Positions 5,032 to 17,524 of a stretch of 32,000 bases of DNA are shown one piece after another. The DNA comes from Rhodothermus marinus (GTDB lineage Bacteria > Bacteroidota > Rhodothermia > Rhodothermales > Rhodothermaceae). The position numbers were made by a program, and so were the translations under genes. How positions within the stretch are numbered: the stretch's first letter is position 1; every line of letters begins with the position of its first letter. The stretch is taken from positions 1,811,890 to 1,843,889 of the forward strand of contig NZ_AP019797.1 of the NCBI RefSeq assembly GCF_009936275.1, given 5' to 3'. A model generated the notes under the pieces. The model did not search any database. It had not been told where the DNA came from and worked only from the letters and a program-made list of their open reading frames with translations.

Positions 5032-8000
5032 TCAAGCAACCCACTCGCCACACAACACCTCCGTTTGACTCAAAACCAGCTCCACAGCCTGTTCCTGTTT
5101 GTCGGGCGGATAGCCATATTTGCGCAGGATACGCTTGACGAGTACGCGCAACTGGGCGCGGGCGCTCTCACGTCTATTCCAATCTACCGTTACACTTTTG
5201 CGTACGCTTTCGACCAGTACCCGGGCGATCTCCTTCAAGGTTTCGTCTCCGAGCACTTCTACAGCGCTTTCATTTACCGCCAGCGCATCATAAAACGCCA
5301 CTTCATCTTCGGACAGGCCGAGCTCTTCACCACGGCGCGTGGCTTCTCGTACCTGCCTGGCAATGGCGATCAGTTCTTCAATCACCTGCGCGGCTTCGAT
5401 GGCGCGATTGTGATACTTGTTCAGGGCCCGCTGGAGCAATTCCGAGAACGCCCGCGACTGCACCACGTTTTTGCGCAGGCGAACCTGGATCTCATCCTGA
5501 AGGAGTTTTTTCAGCGTCTCTACGGCCAGATTTTTCTGCGGCAAGCTGCGCACTTCTTCAAGAAACTCATCGGAAAGAATGGAAATGTCGGGCTTTTCCA
5601 ATCCCGCCGCCGCGAAGATATCCACTACCTCGCAGCCCGAGATCGCCCGGGAAACGAGCTGCCGAACCGCCGCTTCAACCTCCTCCGGGGCGCGCTCCGC
5701 CGAACTCACCGTAGCCTTGATCAGAGCCGCCCGAATCTCCTGAAATAGACCCACCTCGTCGCGAATAGCGAGGGCCTCCTCGTGCGGCACCGCCAAAGCA
5801 AACGCCTTGGACAGCGCCGCCACGGCCTGCAGATAGCGCTTCTTACCGTCCTCCCGCCCCAGAATGAAGTCCATGGCCTCGGCAATGCCCTGCAGGCGCT
5901 CATCGGGAGCAGCAGCCAGCAGGCGCCAATAGTCGAATCCGTGCAGGATGCCGCAGACGACCTCGTACTTCTCCTTCATCACTGCCACGGCTTCGGCCTG
6001 ATCGATGGCCGCCTTGCCCCGACCGCCGCTTTCAGCGTACACGGCAAGCGCCTTCTTGAGGGAATCGGCAATGCCCAGGTAGTCCACCACCAGCCCGCCG
6101 GGCTTGTCGCGAAAGACGCGGTTCACGCGGGCGATGGCCTGCATCAGATTGTGGCCGCTCATCGGCTTGTCGATGTACATCGTGTGCAGGGGCGGCGCAT
6201 CGAAGCCGGTGAGCCACATATCGCGCACAATGACCAGTTCCAGTTCATCGTTTGGGTCTTTGAAACGTCGGGCGAGAAAGTCCCGGCGTTCTTTGTTGCG
6301 GATGTGCGGCTGCCAATCGAGCGGATCCGAGGCAGAGCCGGTCATCACCACCTTGATCTTCCCCCTGGCGTCGTCGTCACTGTGCCACTCAGGACGCAGG
6401 GCCGTAATGGCCTTGTACATCTCCACGCAGATCCGACGGCTCATGCAGACGATCATGCCCTTGCCCAGCAGGGCTTCCCGCCGCCGTTCCCAATGCTGCA
6501 CGAGGTCCTCGGCCACAAGCCGGATGCGCTTCTCCGCTCCCACCAGAGCTTCCAGCGATGCCCATTTCGACTTCAAGCGTTCCCGGCGGACGACATCCTC
6601 TTCGGCTTCGGTAATCTCCTCGATTTCCTCATCGAGCCGCGGTTTCTCCGCCTCATCCAGTTCGATCTTCGCCAACCGGCTTTCGTAGTAGATCGGCACT
6701 GTAGCGCCGTCTTCCACTGCGCGTTGGATATCGTAGATGGAAATGTAATCGCCGAAGACTGCACGGGTGTTTTTGTCTTCCTTCTCGATGGGCGTCCCGG
6801 TAAAGCCAATGAACGATGCGTTGGGAAGCGCATCGCGCATGTGGCGGGCGAAACCGTCAATGAAGTCGTATTGACTGCGGTGGGCTTCGTCGGCGATGAC
6901 AACGATGTTGCTCCGCTCCGACAACGTCGGGTAGCGTTCCCCCCTGGTTTCGGGGAAGAATTTCTGGATGGTGGTGAAAATCACGCCGCCAGAGGCAACT
7001 TGGAGGAGTTCTTTCAGGTGCGCCCGGCTTTCGGCTTGCACGGGGGTTTGGCGCAAGATCTGACGGTTGGCGCTGAAGGTGGCAAAAAGCTGATTGTCCA
7101 AATCGTTGCGGTCGGTTAGCACCACGATGGTGGGGTTTTGCATGGCGGGGTGCCGGATGATTTTGCTGGCGTAGAAGACCATGGAAAGGCTTTTGCCCGA
7201 GCCCTGGGTATGCCAGATGACCCCGACGCGCCGGTCGCCGAACTTCGGGCGATATTCGGCTTTTGGTTCCCGGACCGCAAACGGATCAGCGGCCGCTGCT
7301 TCTTGAAAGCGAGCGTATAGCGTGCTGGCATCCGCTTCAATGCCACAGGCGACGAGTGTGGAAGCGAGCGCCTGATTGACGGCATGGTACTGGTGATAGC
7401 CGGCGGCCTTCTTGGCGATGCCTGCTGTGCCCTTGTCCACCTGTTCGAAGGTGATGAAGTTGAGCACGTAGTCGAGAAAGCGCCGACGCTCGAACATACC
7501 ACGGATCAGGGTCTTCATCCCCGGCTGCACCATACCTTCGCTTTGCTTGTCGTTTCCCGGCTCGCGGTAGAGGTCGGTCCCGTCGATGGTGCGCCAGGGC
7601 ATGAATCGGTCCCAACCGGACGTCAGCGTCCCGAAGCGGGCCTGCATGCCGTCGGAAATGACGAGGATCTCGTTGTAGGTAAAGAGCGAAGGAATCTCCT
7701 GCTTGTAGGTCTGCAACTGATTGAAGGCCGCCCGTAGCGTGGCCTGCACCGTGCCCGGGTCTTTCAACTCGATCACGACCAGCGGCAGACCGTTGACGAA
7801 GAGCACAATATCCGGCCGCCGCTCGTGCTTGTTCTCGATGACCGTGAACTGGTTGACTGCCAGCCAGTCGTTGTTGTCCAGGTTTTCGAGGTCGAGCAGC
7901 CACACCTTGCCGTGCTTCTCCCCTTCCGGTCCCATCCAGGAAACATCCACGCCGTCGGTGAGCATCTGATGGAAGCGGCGGTTGTTCTCGATGAGCGCCG

Positions 8001-8244
8001 GACTCTCGGGCGTGAGCACCTGGCGCAGGGCCTCTTCGATGGCCACGGCGGGCCTGTCCGGATTGATGCGCTCCAGCGCCTCCCGCAACCGCCCCTTGAG
8101 CACCACATCGCCGTAGGTTTCACGTTCCGGCCGTAAGCTCTCCGGGGCGAGGTCGGGGCCGTATGCGGTCTGCCAGCCCAGCGCCTGGAGCTCGTCCAGG
8201 GCCATTTGTTCAACGTCCTCTTCCACAAGATTACCCATGGCCAT
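5032..8244 (-). CDS. hsdR: Type I restriction enzyme R subunit
   Basis: N-terminal PD-(D/E)xK module '[19 protein letters not shown]'. SF2 motif I 'TQGSGKS' (GSGKS at 7189-7203), motif II 'DEAH' (6880-6891), and 'FTGTP'. C-terminal '[30 protein letters not shown]' (DUF3387-type tail). The start is set at ATG 8244 ([24 protein letters not shown], a typical HsdR N-terminus); the ORF-track start at 8322 is an upstream extension. Confidence 0.95.
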
Positions 8245-9385
8245 TCCCGTTTTCGATTTCACGGCGCAACCAATCCAGCAGCGGCTCAATCGCCTCCTCG
8301 TCCAGGCCATCGATAGCGGCAATCTGGATCAGGCGTTTCAACGTCACACGCACCGCCGCCCGTTTTGACTCGCGCCTGCTCCAATCCACGACTGCGAGGT
8401 CTTCCATTTCGTCAAGCAGCGTGTTGGCGAAACGGTGCACCTGCTCTTTCTGGTCGCCCCTGCCACCCAGCAGCCGATGGACGACGAACTCGTAAAGCAG
8501 ATGTACCTTCTCCCGAAACCGCCCCTGATAATCGTCAAGGAGCTGTTGTCTTACTGGCTCGGCGACGGGTTCCGACGGTACCGCTGGCTCTTCTTCTGAA
8601 ACAAATTCGCCCGATTCCCCTGCTTCCTCCTCGACCAATTCCGTTCTTTCCTCCTCCTCGGCTGGCATTGCCCCTTGTAACACATCAAGCACGCTTATGT
8701 AGGCCTGCCGGTCCAGGTGATACAGCAATTCGCTGGGCGGCACGCGCAGTTCGATGGCTTCCTCAGGCGTCTGCGTGCCTGCCTGAACCCGCACCACCAG
8801 CACGCCAGCCTCCTCATCTACCTCAGCCTCCAACGCACAGCCTGCATCGATGCGCTCGTTGAGATGCCGAAACCGCTCTGGCGGCTCTCTGGTGGTCCGA
8901 AGATTGGGCTCCCTGCCGTCGTAGGCGCTCAGAATGAGCGCAATGACCGAGTCGGCCGAGAGCAAATATACCCTCATATGCCGGTTCGCAATCGTGTCGA
9001 GAAACCCATCCCTGCCATGCGCGACGCTGCCGTCCTGATTGCGCAGCTCGTTCAGCCCCTCGACCAGTTTATTGTGCCCCGAGATCACCTTGCCCAGTGG
9101 TCCGACGCCGCGCTGGTTGCGCAATCCCAGGGCGTCCAATACGCAGGAAAGCAACTCCGTTGTCGTCGGCGTGGAGGAAGCCGGTCCCTCTCTCCCCAGC
9201 TCGTTGAGCACCGTCCAGCAGACGCACTCCAGGAAGGACTTGATCAACTCGATGACGCTGCTCCCTTCCCCCTCCCAGGCGCGGACGAGCTCCCGATAGT
9301 GTTGTTGAAGATTGGCGGCATCCGGCCAGCGCTCGACAGCGGCAGGATAGGCCGGGGCGATGTCGTCGAGACGGTTGGCACTCAT
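8231..9385 (-). CDS. 384-aa protein: Abi_C/HEPN-like N-terminal domain + poly-Glu linker + HsdR-C-terminus-like tail
   Basis: '[19 protein letters not shown] ... [17 protein letters not shown] ... [19 protein letters not shown]' follows the Abi_C (abortive infection C-terminus) pattern as I recall it. The C-terminal '[21 protein letters not shown]' matches the HsdR tail. Start ATG 9385 lies 2 nt after the PIN-gene stop (TAG 9388-9390). The 3' end overlaps the hsdR start by 14 nt. Confidence 0.75.
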
Positions 9386-9387
9386 GT

Positions 9388-9876
9388 CTATCTCTCCAGA
9401 ACGAATCGAGCTCGCTCGTGCCGCAACATTTCGAAGGGTGTCATCACCTTGATGCCCAGTCCCACACACACGTTCGGAATCTTGACCTTATTCCGCGTGT
9501 CGGCAGGCTTCTCATGCGTTACAACGACAAACCCACCGGCCAGCGCATGGGCGATAAGCCAGTAGTCCGCCACCTGGAAAAAAGCGTTCTTGGCAGCCGG
9601 GGTGTATCCGTTGCTGTTCACCCATTCGCTCACCGCACCCATCGCTTCGAGAACAGTCGGATCTGGTTTCAAGAAGAAGCCATCCCGCTGAGACGACACC
9701 CAAACCGCCAGTTCATCGTCGCCCGCCTCGAGTTCGTCCTTGACCTTCTCAATGCTGAACACCTTGCCGGCCTGGTTGCTTTCGACCAGCCAGTCCCAGA
9801 AGGCTGGGCAGAAGTCCATGCCGTAATGCAGGTTCTTGGCCGCTATGAAGACGTTGGCATCCAGCAGGTATCTCAT
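9388..9876 (-). CDS. DUF4411-type PIN-like nuclease (putative toxin)
   Basis: 162 aa. 'MRYLLDANVFIAAKNLHYGMDFCPAFWDWL' and 'KIPNVCVGLGIKVMTPFEML' match the DUF4411 pattern I recall. The start overlaps the ImmA stop (ATGA at 9873-9876). Confidence 0.75.
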   Translation of the reverse strand: MRYLLDANVFIAAKNLHYGMDFCPAFWDWLVESNQAGKVFSIEKVKDELEAGDDELAVWVSSQRDGFFLKPDPTVLEAMGAVSEWVNSNGYTPAAKNAFFQVADYWLIAHALAGGFVVVTHEKPADTRNKVKIPNVCVGLGIKVMTPFEMLRHERARFVLER

Positions 9877-11024
9877 GCCGGAATCTCCAGACGTTGCGCC
9901 AGCTCATAAAAGGTCCGGCTTTTTCGCACGCCGAGAAGGCGAAACGCCTCGGTAAAGGGCGTTTGTCCCTCCAACGCGCTCACGATCACCGCCCTGGCGA
10001 ATCGTTTGCCCACATGAGCGCCCAGGGTGTTGTAAAAATCCCCGCCCTTTCCTCCGGGCGAAAGCTGCTTCAACCGCTGTAACTCTTGTTGCCATGCGCT
10101 GTCCAGTGTTTCCCAATTGATCCACCCGGCATCGAACAGACGGCGCAGGATCACCAGGGTGCTGACCTTGAAGCGCCGCGCCAGCCGCTCCAGCGTCTCG
10201 GGTAAAGGTTCGCCTGCCACCAGGTTCGCTCGCACGGCTTCAAGCGGAGCAAGGAATTCCGCCGCCACCGCATTGCACCAGCGCTCGGTCCGCTCGTCGG
10301 GAAGAACGCGCGCGTCGCTATCGCTTACGCCAGATTGTCCCAACCAGAGGTGCGCCAGTTCATGGGCCAGGGTGAACATCTGTCCCGCCTTGCTGTCCCT
10401 GCCATTGATGAACACCAGCGGGGCCAGGTCGTCGGCCAGCGCGAATCCGCGAAACTCGGAGACATCGAGCGGGCGGTGGGTATTGCTGCCGACAATGCCG
10501 CTGACCATCACCAGCACCCCGGCATCTTCGGCCAAGCCGATGAACTGTCGCAGCGCTTCAGTCCATGTCGTCATTCGGGAACGGGCTTCTATATCGAACC
10601 CGAGCTGTTCGCGCATCCGAGCGGCCACCTCCGCCGGGGCATCCTGAAGCGTCGCCGAGCCCACAAAGGCAACCGGCGGTTCGCCATATAGCCGGGCAAA
10701 CTCCCGGTACCAGGCCTGCCGCTGCTGACAGATGTAGATCGTTTCCAGCAGGTCGGCGCTGGGGGAGCTATGGCGTGCCTTCGACGTGGTGCGAAAATCG
10801 GGGATCGGCAATGTCTCTTCCGGCGGTTCGGCCAGAAAGAAATAACCGATAGGGGTATGGGTGGCGCGGGCGAAGTCCTCGAGCTGCCTGAGCGTGGGTT
10901 GCCCCTGCCCTTCTAACCAGTCTTCGAGCTTCTTGAAACGACGAGACAACTCCTCCGGCATGCGGCCAGAGCGCCGCATGGCCCAATACAGGAGTTCGGG
11001 TTTAACAGGCACCCGCAAGGTCAT
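9873..11024 (-). CDS. XRE-type HTH + ImmA/IrrE (COG2856, DUF955/M78) zinc metallopeptidase
   Basis: 383 aa. The N-terminal 'LEDWLEGQGQPTLRQLEDFARATHTPIGYFFL' is HTH-like. HEXXH motif 'HELAH' at 10350-10364 within 'FTLAHELAHLWLG'. Confidence 0.85.
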   Translation of the reverse strand: MTLRVPVKPELLYWAMRRSGRMPEELSRRFKKLEDWLEGQGQPTLRQLEDFARATHTPIGYFFLAEPPEETLPIPDFRTTSKARHSSPSADLLETIYICQQRQAWYREFARLYGEPPVAFVGSATLQDAPAEVAARMREQLGFDIEARSRMTTWTEALRQFIGLAEDAGVLVMVSGIVGSNTHRPLDVSEFRGFALADDLAPLVFINGRDSKAGQMFTLAHELAHLWLGQSGVSDSDARVLPDERTERWCNAVAAEFLAPLEAVRANLVAGEPLPETLERLARRFKVSTLVILRRLFDAGWINWETLDSAWQQELQRLKQLSPGGKGGDFYNTLGAHVGKRFARAVIVSALEGQTPFTEAFRLLGVRKSRTFYELAQRLEIPA

Positions 11025-11141: not shown

Positions 11142-12059
11142 TCAGCCCTTATCATTGATCCGTCTCCTGTTCCCTGCCTTAAAACGCTCGGGCTGCCCTT
11201 TGACAAACTCCAGCTCATACCGGCGACGGTCAAGAAGCTCCAGAAACGCCAGCTCGTGGCCTTCGGAGACCTTGAGTTTACCGTCTAATTCTTCGACTTC
11301 GACACCATTCTGCTCGCAGAGAGCCTTGAGCAAGGATTTGTCGACATTCTTGGTTAGCTCTTGACTCCGGATCGAGGCAAGGTAGCGGGCTGCCCTCGTA
11401 TGCTTTTTGGCATATTCCTCGATAGGGGCTAGTTCTACGAATGGAAGATCACTTTGGATCGCTTTGATGTTCTTCGGCACCGCATCCAGAATGGCCTGCT
11501 GGAGCTTGCCTGCGAACTCAAATCCACTGGGCCGCAGGATGTAGACGTTCTTCGAGTCAGCGAGAAGGTCGAAGTCAATATCCAGCTTGAACACACGGTC
11601 TTCAATCAGCTTGAGTGAGTCCGAGACTAATCGAATCAGGCGGCTCTTCAAAATCCCCTTGAACTGCGTAGCTCGCCGAAGGGCGGTCAAACGCCGATGC
11701 TTGTTATCCGTGAGCTGGGCGAAGTAACAGAATATGTTCGAAGGATCATTCAACGCACCGCTATTGGTGGGCAGATTGGCAGCTTCGTGCAACGTTTTTA
11801 CTGCGGCTGCCATCTCGTGGTCTAGTGGCAGATAGAGGCACTCTCTACTCTCGTATTTCTCGGACGGCTCGTACTCCCTCGGCCCGTCCTCGCAATTGTT
11901 CAATGCATTCCACGTTGCCTGCGCCATCTCGCGAAGCGCTCTCTGCACGCCCACATCTACTGGTACAACGACGAACGTTTGGTGGTCGCCGGCATCAATG
12001 CCCACGCCAAATGTGGTCACGGTCACGTTCTCGAAATCAAAGTCTATGGTTAACCTCAT
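11142..12059 (-). CDS. 305-aa cytoplasmic protein, KwaB-like (DUF4868-type) candidate
   Basis: Size and position (immediately after, and ATGA-overlapping, a 4-TM gene) fit Kiwa KwaB. 'FKLDIDFDLLADSKNVYILRPSGFEF' resembles the DUF4868 core as I remember it. Not verified by any search. Confidence 0.5.
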   Translation of the reverse strand: MRLTIDFDFENVTVTTFGVGIDAGDHQTFVVVPVDVGVQRALREMAQATWNALNNCEDGPREYEPSEKYESRECLYLPLDHEMAAAVKTLHEAANLPTNSGALNDPSNIFCYFAQLTDNKHRRLTALRRATQFKGILKSRLIRLVSDSLKLIEDRVFKLDIDFDLLADSKNVYILRPSGFEFAGKLQQAILDAVPKNIKAIQSDLPFVELAPIEEYAKKHTRAARYLASIRSQELTKNVDKSLLKALCEQNGVEVEELDGKLKVSEGHELAFLELLDRRRYELEFVKGQPERFKAGNRRRINDKG

Positions 12060-12631
12060 GTCTCAGGCTCTAAATAAACTGTATCGCTCAAGCGATAGGC
12101 TATAAGCTTTTCACCAGAAGCGAGACTCACGCGGCGCGTGATTAGAACCAAGGGCACCCTGCCGGTAAGTGGATTGCCGTCATCCGGCGGATAGACCGTA
12201 AACACTCGGTAGCCCCGTGCAGCAAAGACCAGATTCATGTAGTGCAGGTTTAGGTGCCAGAATAGGAATACAACAAACGCCAAAGCGGCAACAGTAGCCC
12301 CAAGGTCACGCCAGTTCCCAAGATCTTCCGAGTAGAACGGCAGCAGCATCGCGAACAGGTAAACGAGAATGTGGTCGCGATGGTCGTCAGAAGTGCCAAC
12401 AATCAGCTCGCGTTTGTCGTTTTCCTTCTTCGCTGTTGCAATGCGCAGCCATAGAAAGGCGTTAGGAACAACTACCATCAGCGCACAACACCCGACGAAC
12501 CAAGGATCGGGGAGAAGACTGTTTCCACGGATAGCCCATAGGATAAAAAGCGGCGAGATGCTGCTGAGCACCATCAGGAGTCGCGCCGCCTTGAGTCCCT
12601 CGCGATGAACGGTAACAGGACGCATGTTCAT
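12056..12631 (-). CDS. 191-aa four-TM membrane protein, KwaA-like candidate
   Basis: Four hydrophobic segments: 'LLMVLSSISPLFILWAI', 'FVGCCALMVVVPNAFLWL', 'ILVYLFAMLLPFY', 'ATVAALAFVVFLFWHL'. A soluble tail of about 55 aa follows. The start overlaps the hsdS stop (ATGA at 12628-12631). Confidence 0.5.
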   Translation of the reverse strand: MNMRPVTVHREGLKAARLLMVLSSISPLFILWAIRGNSLLPDPWFVGCCALMVVVPNAFLWLRIATAKKENDKRELIVGTSDDHRDHILVYLFAMLLPFYSEDLGNWRDLGATVAALAFVVFLFWHLNLHYMNLVFAARGYRVFTVYPPDDGNPLTGRVPLVLITRRVSLASGEKLIAYRLSDTVYLEPET

Positions 12632-13896
12632 ACCGCATCCTCCAGAATCTTCTCCACATCCTTCACCCGCAACTCGCCAGAGATCAGTTTGGGCAGCAGC
12701 GTGTCGCGCAGGGCAGCAAGGGTGCGGGATTCCACTACATAATGATCCTGCAAAGCTCTCATCTTTGATACAAATTCAGAAAGTTTAGAAGCTAAGTTGC
12801 TTCCTGGCCAGAGAATTGGTAAGCACTCAATATCGCTATTTGCTACAAAAGGCTGTGCTGCCCCTTTTTTGATTACGTCAATGTTTGCATTGCGTAGCGC
12901 AAGATATAACCATTCTCCAAGTTTGCGTTCATGAACTCTAACCAAAGAAGCATTGTTGTTTATCCAAGCTTCGCCGATATGTCGGAAAAACTGCCCGCAA
13001 TATGCTCCCACTCTTCCAACAGTTATGACAAAACCAGTTGCGTTGCTAATAGTTGTGTAGCCCATAATACCCGCACCTCCAAAAACGGGCACGGGACCAT
13101 GATCTTTGATGTACTTTTTGGAAAGCTGCTGGCCACCTTTTAGAGCAGCAAACTCCCTGACCTGTTTTATCTCCCACCCCTCCGGAATCGGCCCCAGTTC
13201 CGACTCCACGAAGCGGGCGGGGAAGAGGCGTAGGATGTCTTCGGGCAGGCCAAGGGCGTCGGGGTTGTCGCGGTAGTGGGCGGCGCGTTTGGCGAACTTT
13301 TCGGGGATGGGGTTTCCGGCGCGCAGGGCGTTGACCACCACCGGGTCGAAGTCCACGAACCAGGACTTGAAGAGCGCCTGGGCCATGGCCTCCAGGGTCT
13401 CGTTCATCCGCCGGTTCAGCTCGATCTTGTCATCCAAGGTGCCGAGGATGTGGGCAATGGCGCGTTGTTCGGGAAGGGGTAAATAAGGCCTCTTAAATCT
13501 TTCTACATGTTCCCATTTCGCCCGCGGCATTCGAGTACCTTCGGAACCTTTGCTGGCAAAGTCGATGAAATCGTGAGCAGCCATCCAATAGAAAAGATAA
13601 TTCTGATCAAAACCCTCTTTTGCACGCACTACCCAGATATCCGTAGAGCAAATGCCATCAAATGGTGCACGTATTACCTTACGGAAATATGGACGCAGTT
13701 TTCCAAAAAGTATGTCGCCTTTTCTAAATCGGAATTTTGCACTACTGACATCGGAAGCATATCCCCAACCAGCAAGTCGTAATGTGCCCTGCTCAATGTG
13801 TTCAAGACCAATATAGGGCATTTTTCCAGCTTCTTCAGGCTGGACAACATCCCGCACAAGTTGGGCCACATCACGAAATGCGACCTCGCTTCCCAT
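12628..13896 (-). CDS. hsdS: Type I R-M specificity subunit with two dissimilar target-recognition domains
   Basis: 422 aa. 'PYIGLEHIEQGTL...FRKGDILFGKLRPYFRKVIRAPFDGICSTDIWVV' is a classic Methylase_S pattern. Central conserved region 'LPEQRAIAHILGTLDDKIELNRRMNETLEAMAQALFKSWFVDFDPV'. Distal 'LAALRDTLLPKLISGELRV'. Confidence 0.92.
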   Translation of the reverse strand: MGSEVAFRDVAQLVRDVVQPEEAGKMPYIGLEHIEQGTLRLAGWGYASDVSSAKFRFRKGDILFGKLRPYFRKVIRAPFDGICSTDIWVVRAKEGFDQNYLFYWMAAHDFIDFASKGSEGTRMPRAKWEHVERFKRPYLPLPEQRAIAHILGTLDDKIELNRRMNETLEAMAQALFKSWFVDFDPVVVNALRAGNPIPEKFAKRAAHYRDNPDALGLPEDILRLFPARFVESELGPIPEGWEIKQVREFAALKGGQQLSKKYIKDHGPVPVFGGAGIMGYTTISNATGFVITVGRVGAYCGQFFRHIGEAWINNNASLVRVHERKLGEWLYLALRNANIDVIKKGAAQPFVANSDIECLPILWPGSNLASKLSEFVSKMRALQDHYVVESRTLAALRDTLLPKLISGELRVKDVEKILEDAV

Positions 13897-13907
13897 AGAT
13901 CACCCCT

Positions 13908-15962
13908 TCATGGATTCAAGAAGGCCCGATTTATCTCTTCAAACAGATTACTGGCTATCCTGAAAACATCAGTGGGGATTTTTTCTGAACCATCCATAAT
14001 CCAGTCCCGTAATACCGCAGCGGGTCGCCACTTCTCGAACCGACCAAGTCCCTTGTACTCAAAGAGCGCCTTCACTTTGTTTACAACGCCATCGGTTGTC
14101 TCTATGTCCTCGTCAAACGTTAGCTGGTCGATATTGTAGGCTTCCCTTACTGCTTCCAGGTAAACCTCTTCAGGAAAAATATCTTCGAGCTCTGCATATG
14201 GTTTTTCTGGCAAAAAATCCCCAATGAATAGGCAACGTCCTGTTTCACCTGCAAATAAGTTTTCGGTGAGCTTCTTGCCTTCCTTGCGACCTGGTTCGTC
14301 ACCATCCAAGAGGGCTACAACCTCGACGTCATGGCCAATAAGCATACTAGCCAGGGGAAATAATTTGCTCAAACCAGCTGATGGAACAATAACCACATCA
14401 TCCCGAAGGGCTGACTCACCGCGCTGTCGAAGCAACTGGTCAAACGCCTTGAGAATCCAGTAGTCGGTAATCCCTTCAACGATTAGTTGGCGCTTGCTGA
14501 TAAAAAGAGATTGAACAAGCTGATACCCTAAGCCTGCCTGAAGTGGGAAAAGAGCATCTTTGTCACGAGGCCAAATGTCTTCTGATACTTTGGTCGTTCC
14601 ATCTTCTGCCTCATAGACAATACGGACTCGTTCCAAGTGGTCTGCATCTATCATAAAAGGGGAGTGGGTTGTGTACATTGTCTGATTTTCTTGGGAAAGC
14701 TTCTCAAGGAACTTGACCACCTTTGCTTGGGCTGTCCCATGCATGTGCAAGCCGGGCTCGTCCAGAAGGAGAATTGCCTTTTGATGTGCCCCTTTCGCTT
14801 CAACAAGGAAAACGGTAAAGAATGAGAAGAAATACTGCATACCCAAGCTGCGCTGGTCCAGTTCGATCTCGCTTGGATCAAGGTCATCAGAAACCCAAAT
14901 ACGGAAAAAGTCCCCGTCTGCTTGATAGCGGAACTTGTGGCGGCGCTGCTCCCACCAGTCTTGGAATTTGGTAGTCATGGCATTTGACGCTGAAGATAGT
15001 TTTATAGCGCGCTCATCAACGTAACGGCGGATCTTTTCAATAGTCTGGGAATCCATTTGCTGTCCTGGCTGGTGCTTCTTCCCAAGTGCTGCTAATTCTT
15101 CCACATCGAGACCCACGTGCTCAAATAAGCATCGCGTTGTGCGAACGCGGGGCGCGGTAGGATTTTGGTTGAGCTGCTGCACAAAAGTTGGGAGATGAAC
15201 GGCGCTGTCAATTACGTCGTAGCGGTCAAAGTAGATGAACTTTGGAAGATTGTTTTCAACCCATTGCTTGGCTTGCGCCAGTTCATAACCAAAGGAAGCG
15301 CGCTCAAGCAAGCTCTGGGCTTTTTTGCTTATATCCTGGAGAAGCTTTTTTTGCCATTGCTCGTTTGATTGCGTAGCGATGGTGTGTACGAGTCTCTCAA
15401 CTTCGGCTTTCGGTACAACTTCATCCGGCCTTGTTGAGGATTGTTGATTTTCAAGCTGATAGAGGGTCTGAAGGAGGGTATTCTTAATTGCACCGAGAGC
15501 ATCGCCCTTACCTTCGGGGGCGGTCAGATCACTCAGCGTTTGCCGAATCTCTCCAATGGCAGTTTTGAATTCAGTACGAGTCAAGACAGAAGTAGGAGGA
15601 GCGGGTTCAAATTCTACTGACAATTCCCAAGAGTAATGGCGCGTACATGTCACCTGCTTGACGTCCGCAAGTGCAGAGCATATTTCGGCAAGCTTCTTGC
15701 GATCGATGTCGTCAAGCTCAAACCTGCCGCTTGCTACAGGCCAATCTTGCTTTTGGAATTCGTCGGTATAACGCCGTCGTGGAAATTCTTTAAGTCCATC
15801 GTATCTTTCACCGTCGGATGGGTTGAGCTTGGAGAGGCCTCGAAACAACGCTGACTTACCTGCTTCATTTTTTCCCACGAAGCAGGTGAGATCACGGACA
15901 CTAACCCATCCTGTATCTTGAATCTTCTTGTAGTTTTGGACGCGAAAAGCTACAAGTTTCAT
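13908..15962 (-). CDS. OLD-family nuclease (ABC-type ATPase + C-terminal TOPRIM)
   Basis: 684 aa. Walker A 'GKNEAGKS' (15852-15875), ABC-signature-like 'SLGMQ', Walker B 'ILLLDEPG', 'TTHSP'. TOPRIM Glu in 'LIVEGITD' (E at 14475-14477) and 'DGD' (14298-14306). The start overlaps the hsdM stop (ATGA at 15959-15962). Confidence 0.8.
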
Positions 15963-17524
15963 AATTCATCCTCCTTCGTATAGAATCCAAGCACCTCCAG
16001 GTTTTTCTTGATTTCCGCCTCCAGCCGGCGGGCTTCCTCGAACTGCTCATAGAGCGTGGCGGTCAGTTCGGCCATCTTCTCTTCAAAGGGAATGCCGTCG
16101 TCCTCTCGCTCCTCCACGCCCACGTAGCGTCCCGGCGTGAGCACGTAGTCGCGCTGGCGGATATCCTCGATGGTGGCCGACTTCCACCAGCCGGGTTTGT
16201 CCTGGTAACCCTCGCCCTTCTTCCAGGCGTGGTACACGTCTGCGATCTGGCGGATTTCCTCCTGGGTCAGCTCCCGGTGCACACGGTCCACCAGGCGGCC
16301 CATGCGCCGGGCGTCGATGAAGAGGGTTTCGCCGGTGCGGTCGCGATAGCCTCGCTTCGGGTCGGCCTTCTTATTGCGGGTGAGGAACCAGAGCGAGACC
16401 GGAATCTGCGTGGTGTAGAAGAGCTGTCCCGGCAGGGCGACGATGCAATCCACCAGGTCGTCCTCGATGATGCCCTTGCGAATCTCGAATTCGGCCTTCG
16501 TGGATGTAGAGAGCGAGCCGTTGGCCATCACGAACCCGGCAATGCCGTTGGGGGCCAGGTGATAGATGAAGTGCTGGATCCAGGCGTAGTTGGCGTTGCT
16601 CGCAGGGGGTACGCCATATTTCCAGCGCGGGTCGTCCGTGAGCCGCTCCCCGCCCCAGTCGCTCATGTTGAAGGGGGGATTGGCCAGGATGTAGTCGGCC
16701 TTCAGGTCCTTGTGCAGGTCGTTGTGGAAGGTGTCGGCATGGTGCGGGCCCAGGTCGGCGTCGATGCGGCGGATGGCCAGGTTCATCTTGCAGAGCCGCC
16801 AGGTGGTGGGGTTCGACTCCTGGCCATAGATGGCGATGTCGCCGAGCTTCCCCCCGTGGGCTTCCACGAACTTCTCCGACTGCACGAACATGCCACCCGA
16901 GCCGCAACAGGGGTCGTACACGCGCCCGCGGTACGGCTCGATCATCTCAACCAGAAGTTGCACGACGCACTGGGGCGTGTAGTACTCGCCGCCGCGCTTG
17001 CCCTCCTTCTCGGCAAATTTGCCCAGAAAATATTCGTACACCCGCCCAAGCGGGTCTCGGACGCCGTATTCCTGCGCCTTCAGGTTGATATCGCCGACAA
17101 GCTTCACCAGCTCACCCAGGCGCACCTTGTCCAACGTCGGGCGGGCGTAGTCCTTGGGCAACACCCCCTTGAGCGACGGGTTCTCCCGCTCGATGGCCGC
17201 CATCGCCTCGTCGATGACCTGGCCGATGGTGGGCTGTGGCGCAGCCGCCTGAATTTTCTCCCAGCGCGCCTCGGGCGGCACCCAGAAGACGTTGGCGGCC
17301 AGGTACTCGTCGCGATCCTCGGGGTCGGTGAACTCGGTGTCCTGCTTGGCCTTGAGCTCCTGGTACTTTTCCTCGAAGGCGTCGGAAATGTATTTGAGGA
17401 AAATCAGCCCCAGCACCACGTGCTTGTACTCGGCGGCGTCCATATGGCCGCGTAACTTGTCGGCCATCTCCCAGAGCTTGTTCTCAAAGCCCAGATTGGC
17501 GCCGTTTGTTTTATTCGTATCCAT
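15959..17524 (-). CDS. hsdM: Type I R-M N6-adenine DNA methyltransferase subunit
   Basis: 521 aa. HsdM_N pattern '[34 protein letters not shown]', AdoMet motif '[12 protein letters not shown]', catalytic 'NPPF' (16670-16681). Confidence 0.95.

Follow-up and report, generated by a model that had tools for sequence, protein, structure and literature searches.

The subject of this work is a protein of 384 amino acids (aa) that carries a predicted abortive infection domain and is encoded within a Type I restriction-modification (R-M) operon of Rhodothermus marinus. The stretch analysed, called the window below, is 32,000 nucleotides long (contig NZ_AP019797.1, positions 1,811,890 to 1,843,889 of the forward strand), and all positions are given in its own numbering. 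The gene, referred to here as the Abi_C gene, lies at 8231-9385 on the minus strand and runs from an ATG at 9385 to a TAA stop codon at 8231-8233. Its translation comprises an N-terminal HEPN module, a middle alpha/beta domain, an acidic linker and a helical C-terminal domain that resembles the end of HsdR. An initial annotation, made from the letters of the sequence alone, had chosen the ATG at 9385 as the start, and this choice agrees with a Shine-Dalgarno sequence (GGAGAG, 9392-9397) six nucleotides 5’ of it, with the upstream DUF4411 gene, which stops two nucleotides before it, and with homologue length, an orthologue of 93% identity being likewise of 384 aa. The same annotation had placed an Abi_C/HEPN-like domain at 8915-9292, which corresponds to residues 32-157, and the four peptides that it quoted are found in the protein at residues 46-64, 78-88, 107-127 and 134-152. 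At its 3’ end the gene overlaps the start of hsdR by 8 nucleotides (ATGGGTAA). For hsdR, starts at 8235 or at the TTG of the longest open reading frame (ORF), 8322, were rejected in favour of the ATG at 8238, and the product of the orthologous locus also has 1068 aa. Full-length homologues of the Abi_C protein form at least 215 clusters. PF14355 is precomputed for 120 of the 120 homologues listed, and NCBI labels family members ‘abortive infection family protein’. No NCBIfam model matches the protein, and a phage collection held no relatives of it.

The N-terminal part of the protein (residues 1-157, positions 8915-9385, minus strand) is modelled as all-alpha and is made up of a conserved extension (residues 1-40) and the Abi_C/HEPN domain. 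The presence of this domain is borne out by a Pfam scan, in which Abi_C (PF14355) matches residues 82-152 with 39.3 bits (E 7e-10, profile positions 7-82 of 83) against a curated gathering cut-off of 24 bits, by a match of residues 42-126 to the PADLOC hidden Markov model (HMM) of AbiJ (E 2.8e-4) and by the R-N...H-G core, of which R115, H123 and G124 are invariant and N116 is kept in 97 of the 110 full-length relatives aligned (identity down to 37%). The unusual N-terminal placement and the fusion to other modules also proved correct; in the AbiJ profile the same region occupies positions 167-249 of 281. The predicted catalytic motif, R115-N116-QDGSVA-H123 (9017-9043, minus strand), is followed by G124 and by D126, which is at least 90% conserved. 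Translation confirms that the arginine (9041-9043) and the histidine (9017-9019) are separated by seven residues, one more than in the classic HEPN motif, Rx4-6H with a polar residue (N/D/H) following the R (Anantharaman 2013, PMC3710099). The Rx7H spacing is present in 110 of 110 relatives, and it is shared by a distant tail-less relative of 240 aa whose Abi_C match scores 72.7 bits (ELRNNYGMASHG). Because the spacing is constant across the family, the extra spacer residue is, by this alignment, a fixed family trait and not a lesion. The classic motif is thus not present, but a relaxed Abi_C motif, R-polar-X(n)-H, is, with X = 6 in R-N-QDGSVA-H; in Abi_C proteins 2-6 residues lie between the polar position and the H (Kondo et al. 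2026, PMC13590631), and the Abi_C protein stands at the upper edge of this range. An AlphaFold2 (AF2) model of the N-domain alone (mean predicted local distance difference test score, pLDDT, 82; predicted template modelling score 0.79; the full-length model has a pLDDT of 80.7) has helices at residues 44-63, 75-85, 96-117 and 125-156, with the motif on the loop between the two longest, 96-117 and 125-156. In helix 44-63 the residues E46, K49 and E53 are at least 90% conserved, giving a pattern of E-x2-K or K-x3-E, not an exact E-x3-[KR], the motif that typically holds the conserved upstream acidic residue of HEPN domains. Searches of the PDB with the sequence and with an N-domain profile returned nothing relevant.

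The C-terminal domain (residues 281-384, positions 8234-8545, minus strand) is modelled as four helices (residues 291-305, 313-330, 339-356 and 363-377; pLDDT about 90) and has Y286, D334 and W372 as invariants of the alignment. A segment of it, residues about 314-366 (8288-8446, minus strand), resembles residues 999-1051 of the HsdR of the same operon (5086-5244, minus strand, counted from M1 at 8238), as found by BLASTP, Pfam, hhalign and a profile search. In BLASTP, residues 314-354 are 39% identical over 41 aa to the window HsdR near its C-terminus (E 3e-6), and the Pfam family T1RH-like_C (PF11867, formerly DUF3387) matches the tail at its positions 261-303 of 329 with 22.5 bits. When the profile of the family’s C-terminal domain was aligned by hhalign to that of 32 HsdR C-termini, residues 314-366 matched HsdR 999-1051 with a probability of 96.1% (E 2.9e-9, 53 columns), compared with less than 1% for two control domains of the family, the middle and the N-terminal one. 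A tail HMM picks up the C-termini of 37 HsdR-sized ORFs in related loci, and among 1.8 billion representative proteins the tail profile has 377 matches, of which those outside the family are C-terminal HsdR fragments with T1RH-like_C. Both tails have the consensus DW..RE...A.l[RK]V..KR.L.k[FY]G. On these alignments the tail is a homologue, or paralogue, of the last part of the HsdR C-terminal domain. The Abi_C and HsdR tails of one locus are only about 25% identical, and the duplication would therefore be old.

In a search that covered all ORFs of 57 loci and the best 150 library matches, the tail was found only in the Abi_C family and in HsdR or its fragments, and a general docking module spread over many accessory proteins is thus unsupported. 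We likewise make no claim of cognate-specific co-variation or gene conversion between the tails, for which the test was marginal (p 0.045). The PADLOC model PDC-S15 gives a weak match to tail residues 306-373 only (profile positions 340-408 of 416, E 3e-5), and this different defence-candidate protein may, from the match, end in the same HsdR-like segment. Of three short library proteins (P0254, P0267 and P0233), two combine HsdM_N with a T1RH-like_C tail (226 and 242 aa) and one combines HD with T1RH-like_C (324 aa). They may have arisen as chimeras of the assembly, or they may be genuine small derivatives of R-M subunits. A ‘DUF3387’ gene of Synechococcus is a small stand-alone gene and not a member of the Abi_C protein family (PMC5490813).

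The position of the Abi_C gene was compared among related loci, 52 of them from species-representative genomes and the others from an exact look-up. Judging by record titles these belong to about 20 phylum-level lineages, and in 56 related loci the gene occupies the slot hsdM-hsdS-X-(inserts)-hsdR. It is co-oriented with hsdS and downstream of it in all loci except one (L055), and by a crude measure it lies less than 200 bp from hsdS in 43 of 53. The minimal form, hsdM-hsdS-AbiC-hsdR with overlapping codons, is found in Dethiosulfovibrio. Kiwa, ImmA/DUF4411 and other genes vary in their presence and sit at differing junctions. Pairwise divergence of the Abi_C protein is correlated with that of HsdR (r 0.77) and of HsdM (r 0.69; Mantel p < 0.0005, with 0 of 2000 permutations reaching the observed value); the correlation between HsdR and HsdM themselves is 0.86. 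Because its divergence tracks that of HsdR and HsdM, the Abi_C gene behaves, in these sequence comparisons, like a gene that has long been part of this Type I clade, unlike the neighbouring Kiwa or OLD genes.

Several observations on these loci concern the integrity and the surroundings of the gene. Extra genes are usually inserted between AbiC and hsdR, where many loci have a gap of 0.5-5 kb; hsdS and AbiC, by contrast, almost always lie tight against each other. The window, with AbiC tight against hsdR and apart from hsdS, is a minority arrangement. Two loci have an interrupted Abi_C gene, L044 (2653-4170) through an IS66-like transposase and L048 (4442-5934) through an IS3-like element, with hsdS and hsdR apparently intact. 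From these two genomes with insertion sequences (IS) it follows that the gene is dispensable for the maintenance of the R-M genes; the disruptions are compatible with a cost to the host, and no more than that. In two further loci, from metagenome-assembled genomes (L042 and L052, around 10630-10750), the reading frame seems to shift between the HEPN part and the tail, perhaps through errors of assembly.

A second family occupies the same position without the tail. The only plasmid match of the Abi_C protein is WP_310819800.1, a 240-aa ‘abortive infection family protein’ encoded on plasmid NZ_CP134199.1 (Paraburkholderia), which is 25% identical to residues 15-234, that is, to the HEPN module and part of the middle domain. 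Its gene lies between hsdS and an hsdR of the T1RH-like_C type, with overlapping codons, and members in three further genomes checked have the same hsdS-X-hsdR slot. This tail-less family, whose members have about 241-246 aa and occur in Burkholderia pseudomallei among others, comprises at least 734 clusters and is both more numerous and more uniform than the long form with its at least 215 clusters. It shares with the window protein the HEPN module, Rx7H, part of the middle region and the hsdM-hsdS-X-hsdR slot, but unlike the window protein it has neither the acidic linker nor the HsdR-like C-terminal domain. The comparison indicates that the association of this HEPN lineage with Type I operons is broader and probably older than the tail, and that the tail is, on the distribution of the two families, an add-on that operon linkage does not require. 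Because the tail-less family fills the same slot, the tail would not be the sole basis of any coupling to the R-M system.

Between the HEPN module and the tail lie two further regions. The middle domain (residues 160-240, positions 8666-8908, minus strand) is predicted to have an alpha-beta-beta-beta-alpha-alpha order (AF2 pLDDT 86-95), its invariants in the alignments are P160, T165, R166, I179, L221, R226 and Y229, and no Pfam family matches it. It is in part common to the 240-aa tail-less relative. Its only structural hints, non-significant Foldseek matches with E about 1-2 and a probability of 0.5-0.75, point to a chromodomain fold and to the Alu-RNA-binding fold of SRP9/14. The linker (residues 241-280, positions 8546-8665, minus strand) is acidic, of low complexity and predicted to be disordered; at residues 242-280 the pLDDT is below 50, the alignment is poor, and the length varies among relatives.

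The operon in the window is read entirely from the minus strand. It begins with hsdM (15959-17524; Pfam HsdM_N, N6_Mtase), followed by an OLD-family AAA_15/TOPRIM ATPase gene (13908-15962) that lies between hsdM and hsdS (12628-13896; Pfam Methylase_S). Next come KwaA (12056-12631; PADLOC E 2e-95) and KwaB (11142-12059; PADLOC E 1e-132), which make up a complete Kiwa system (11142-12631) nested between hsdS and a pair of overlapping genes, one for an ImmA/IrrE-type M78 peptidase of 383 aa (9873-11024; also matching the PADLOC RmrA and CapP models) and one for a PIN-like DUF4411 protein of 162 aa (9388-9876). The Abi_C gene is next, and hsdR (5032-8238, 1068 aa; Pfam HSDR_N, SWI2_SNF2, T1R_D3-like and T1RH-like_C; TIGR00348) completes the operon. 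All three of hsdM, hsdS and hsdR are present, co-oriented and intact, as expected of a Type I R-M locus, and nearly all junctions of the operon are overlapping or a few bases wide. The flanks are housekeeping genes (polB, arginine decarboxylase and an isocitrate-dehydrogenase-type gene), and the locus is therefore a chromosomal island. A scan for operon promoters and terminators gave counts equal to the shuffled expectation and was uninformative. The guanine-plus-cytosine (GC) content is 0.48 in the OLD ATPase gene and 0.51 in hsdS, compared with 0.60-0.62 in hsdM, hsdR and the Abi_C gene, and the low values suggest that the specificity module was recently swapped or inserted along with the OLD ATPase. 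Kiwa stands at another junction, AbiC-KwaA-KwaB-hsdR, in Elongatibacter (L002/L024) and in locus L029. The ImmA/DUF4411 pair recurs at different junctions of related Type I operons (L003-L005, L010 and L057), as expected, from gene order, of a mobile two-gene toxin-antitoxin or defence module.

Taken together, our results are best explained, we think with somewhat better than even chances, by a latent HEPN toxin that is coupled to the Type I enzyme as a fourth component. That the HEPN protein, a predicted RNase, serves the Type I system as a functional accessory is the part of this interpretation in which we have good confidence. HEPN domains with this motif are metal-independent RNases, many of them linked to R-M systems (PMC3710099), and an activity of this kind that depends on R and H is on record for PrrC, RNase L and SadR. 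The window protein’s N-terminal domain is predicted to cleave RNA in this metal-independent way, as an endoribonuclease in which R115, N116 and H123 would be catalytic. The Abi_C gene would be carried on one transcript with the R-M genes and translationally coupled to hsdR, and the Type I enzyme would hold the latent toxin in check. The C-terminal helical domain of HsdR has been proposed to contact the methyltransferase, in the part of PMC5248579 that cites Davies 1999. The HsdR-like tail may tether the toxin to whichever partner is contacted by the tail of HsdR, with the acidic linker as a flexible leash, so that the long form would be tied to the Type I complex partly through its tail. If the complex is inhibited, for example by a phage anti-restriction protein, or if restriction has failed, the HEPN domain would be freed, would dimerise and would cut RNA, and translation arrest would then abort the infection, as proposed for PrrC in the prr locus. 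We infer the RNase activity of the Abi_C protein, its physical binding, its trigger and its RNA target, and this specific guard-and-tether mechanism is put forward tentatively, with rather less than an even chance of being right in its particulars. More doubtful still, and in our opinion unlikely, is a stricter version in which the tail is a copy of the M2S-engaging element of HsdR, through which the HEPN RNase docks in or next to the HsdR site. In that case the R-M complex might use either of two interchangeable arms as its effector, one that cuts DNA and one that cuts RNA; alternatively, the protein could be a built-in guard that senses when HsdR is displaced or lost, and the acidic linker could be a DNA-mimic-like leash.

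Several results weigh against the coupled latent toxin. With regard to the tail, its T1RH-like_C score of 22.5 bits is below the Pfam gathering cut-off of 26.8, although some relatives of the Abi_C protein do have a precomputed PF11867 match, and the resemblance between the Abi_C and HsdR tails of cognate pairs exceeds that of non-cognate pairs only marginally. PDB searches found no solved structure that covers this part of T1RH-like_C; those made with the tail profile and the HsdR C-terminus returned nothing relevant, and the tail is not mappable onto the EcoR124I cryo-electron microscopy complexes. The tail-less sister family fills the same slot with neither linker nor tail. With regard to the HEPN domain, the motif is one residue longer than Rx4-6H, and residues 118-129 of the motif loop have a pLDDT below 50. 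The similarity to Abi_C/HEPN that had been predicted holds at the level of profiles, but its structural counterpart was not recovered: Foldseek found nothing in the PDB better than E 0.36 for the full-length model and nothing better than E 1.3 for the isolated N-domain, and the HEPN toxin 7ae6 surfaced only at a non-significant E of 5.7.

Four other explanations have to be weighed against the coupled latent toxin. The HEPN protein might be an alternative effector subunit that replaces HsdR on M2S, so that recognition of an unmethylated site switches on RNA cleavage, in place of DNA cleavage or together with it; the protein would then be an RNA-cutting arm of the Type I enzyme, not its guard. 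The homology of the tail to a C-terminal segment of HsdR is what such a subunit would have, the gene is tightest to hsdS, the methyltransferase module (the 43 of 53 loci above), and DNA with unmodified EcoprrI sites is a positive effector of PrrC (PMC3014915). However, hsdR is always kept beside the Abi_C gene, tail-less relatives fill the same slot, the HsdR segment is no more than a putative docking element, and the co-variation of cognate tails is marginal; we consider a replacement of HsdR improbable. To the same low degree we would credit an independent abortive-infection toxin that happens to reside in a defence hot spot, senses phage by itself, for example through the middle domain, and is not coupled to restriction. 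The operon does hold other, unrelated defence modules (Kiwa, the OLD-family ATPase and ImmA/DUF4411), tail-less forms exist, and the lactococcal AbiJ and the staphylococcal SadR act as single genes (PMC13064643, PMC13590631). Such independence is difficult to reconcile with a slot and orientation that are fixed in essentially all related operons of about 20 phylum-level lineages, unlike those of the other inserts, with the co-divergence with hsdR and hsdM, with the overlapping codons and with the HsdR-derived tail.

The two remaining explanations dispense with a toxin. The location of the gene directly before hsdR, with overlapping codons, could indicate a regulator of restriction, whose tail competes with HsdR in assembly, for restriction alleviation or control of establishment, or whose HEPN domain processes the hsd transcript, but the invariant R/N/H residues favour an active nuclease over a scaffold, and at least two genomes keep intact R-M genes beside an Abi_C gene that an IS has disrupted. 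We consider a regulator very improbable. Least credible of all is that the Abi_C match reflects the resemblance of one helical bundle to another, in a degenerate or non-HEPN domain with no nuclease activity, as could be read from the non-significant Foldseek matches to solved HEPN folds, the spacing outside Rx4-6H and the low pLDDT of the motif loop.

The coupled latent toxin, which we retain as the best available account, is in its general outline not new. The idea of HEPN or AbiJ proteins in R-M operons, with the analogy to PrrC, is already published (2013, PMC3710099), and we consider the domain finding itself to be largely what specialists would expect, the C-terminal domain being the most informative part. 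In the searchable literature we found no description of the architecture of HEPN, alpha/beta domain, acidic linker and HsdR-tail paralogue, of the Abi_C gene as the fixed fourth gene of one Type I clade, or of the pair of long and short families in the same slot. The label ‘abortive infection family protein’, in hundreds of genomes, hides this conserved fourth gene. If the coupling is true, the Type I clade has a two-layer defence, DNA restriction and RNA-level abortive infection, and should be annotated so. To our knowledge, PrrC is the only R-M-embedded toxin for which it is understood how the state of the restriction enzyme is sensed, and even there the interface is undefined. The tail provides a testable handle on how such a toxin may be wired to the enzyme, and a simpler protein, free of a nucleoside triphosphatase (NTPase) and with an HsdR-derived tail and a tail-less sister, is a natural comparison for the tethering of HEPN domains to Type I complexes. 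Were the docking of the tail at the HsdR site also true, it would constitute a concrete, transferable module by which toxins embedded in R-M loci could tell what state the restriction complex is in.

Among known systems the closest in position is the E. coli prr locus with its Type IC system EcoprrI. Its order, prrABCD, is hsdM-hsdS-prrC-hsdR (PMC3014915), and the parallel to PrrC drawn in the initial annotation is supported by the same slot, hsdM-hsdS-X-hsdR, in most relatives of the Abi_C gene. PrrC is an RNase of the HEPN superfamily whose gene lies between hsdS and hsdR; its Type I enzyme keeps it silent, and the anti-restriction peptide Stp sets it free (PMC3014915, PMC3874165, PMC12707154). 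The two proteins differ in their construction. In PrrC an ABC-type NTPase is N-terminal and a HEPN domain of a different family is C-terminal, whereas the window protein has an N-terminal HEPN domain of the Abi_C type, followed by the middle alpha/beta domain and the HsdR-like tail, and no NTPase domain was found in it by Pfam, NCBIfam and PADLOC scans. Because it has no NTPase and the opposite domain order, the window protein is, by domain content, not a member of PrrC/RloC. The host R-M system differs also, in that its HsdR is of the T1RH-like_C type and not of the EcoR124_C type, and its C-terminus has no sequence match to EcoR124I. With HsdR itself the window protein shares only the last sixth of the 329-position T1RH-like_C domain, and the nuclease and motor of HsdR are absent.

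AbiJ and SadR, by profile, belong to the same HEPN subfamily as the window protein and share its R-N-x(n)-H-G core. SadR, an Abi_C protein of S. aureus, degrades single-stranded RNA and defends against phage (Kondo et al. 2026, PMC13590631), and its R225, N226 and H232, in the motif RNEYGDAH, are needed for both RNase activity and phage defence (PMC13590631). The spacer of the window protein, in RNQDGSVAH, is one residue longer. In AbiJ and SadR the HEPN domain is C-terminal and stands behind sensor domains of the AbiJ-NTD type or behind none, whereas in the window protein it is N-terminal, with three modules after it. Neither Pfam nor PADLOC found an AbiJ-NTD in the window protein, and the match to the AbiJ HMM is only partial; for want of the AbiJ N-terminal domain the protein is, on these scans, not a full AbiJ. 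In 2013 a mode of action like that of PrrC was proposed for the HEPN clades that are linked to R-M systems, AbiJ-family ‘solos’ among them (Anantharaman et al., PMC3710099). Unlike AbiJ and SadR, the family of the window protein is tied to the Type I operon slot in essentially all related loci.

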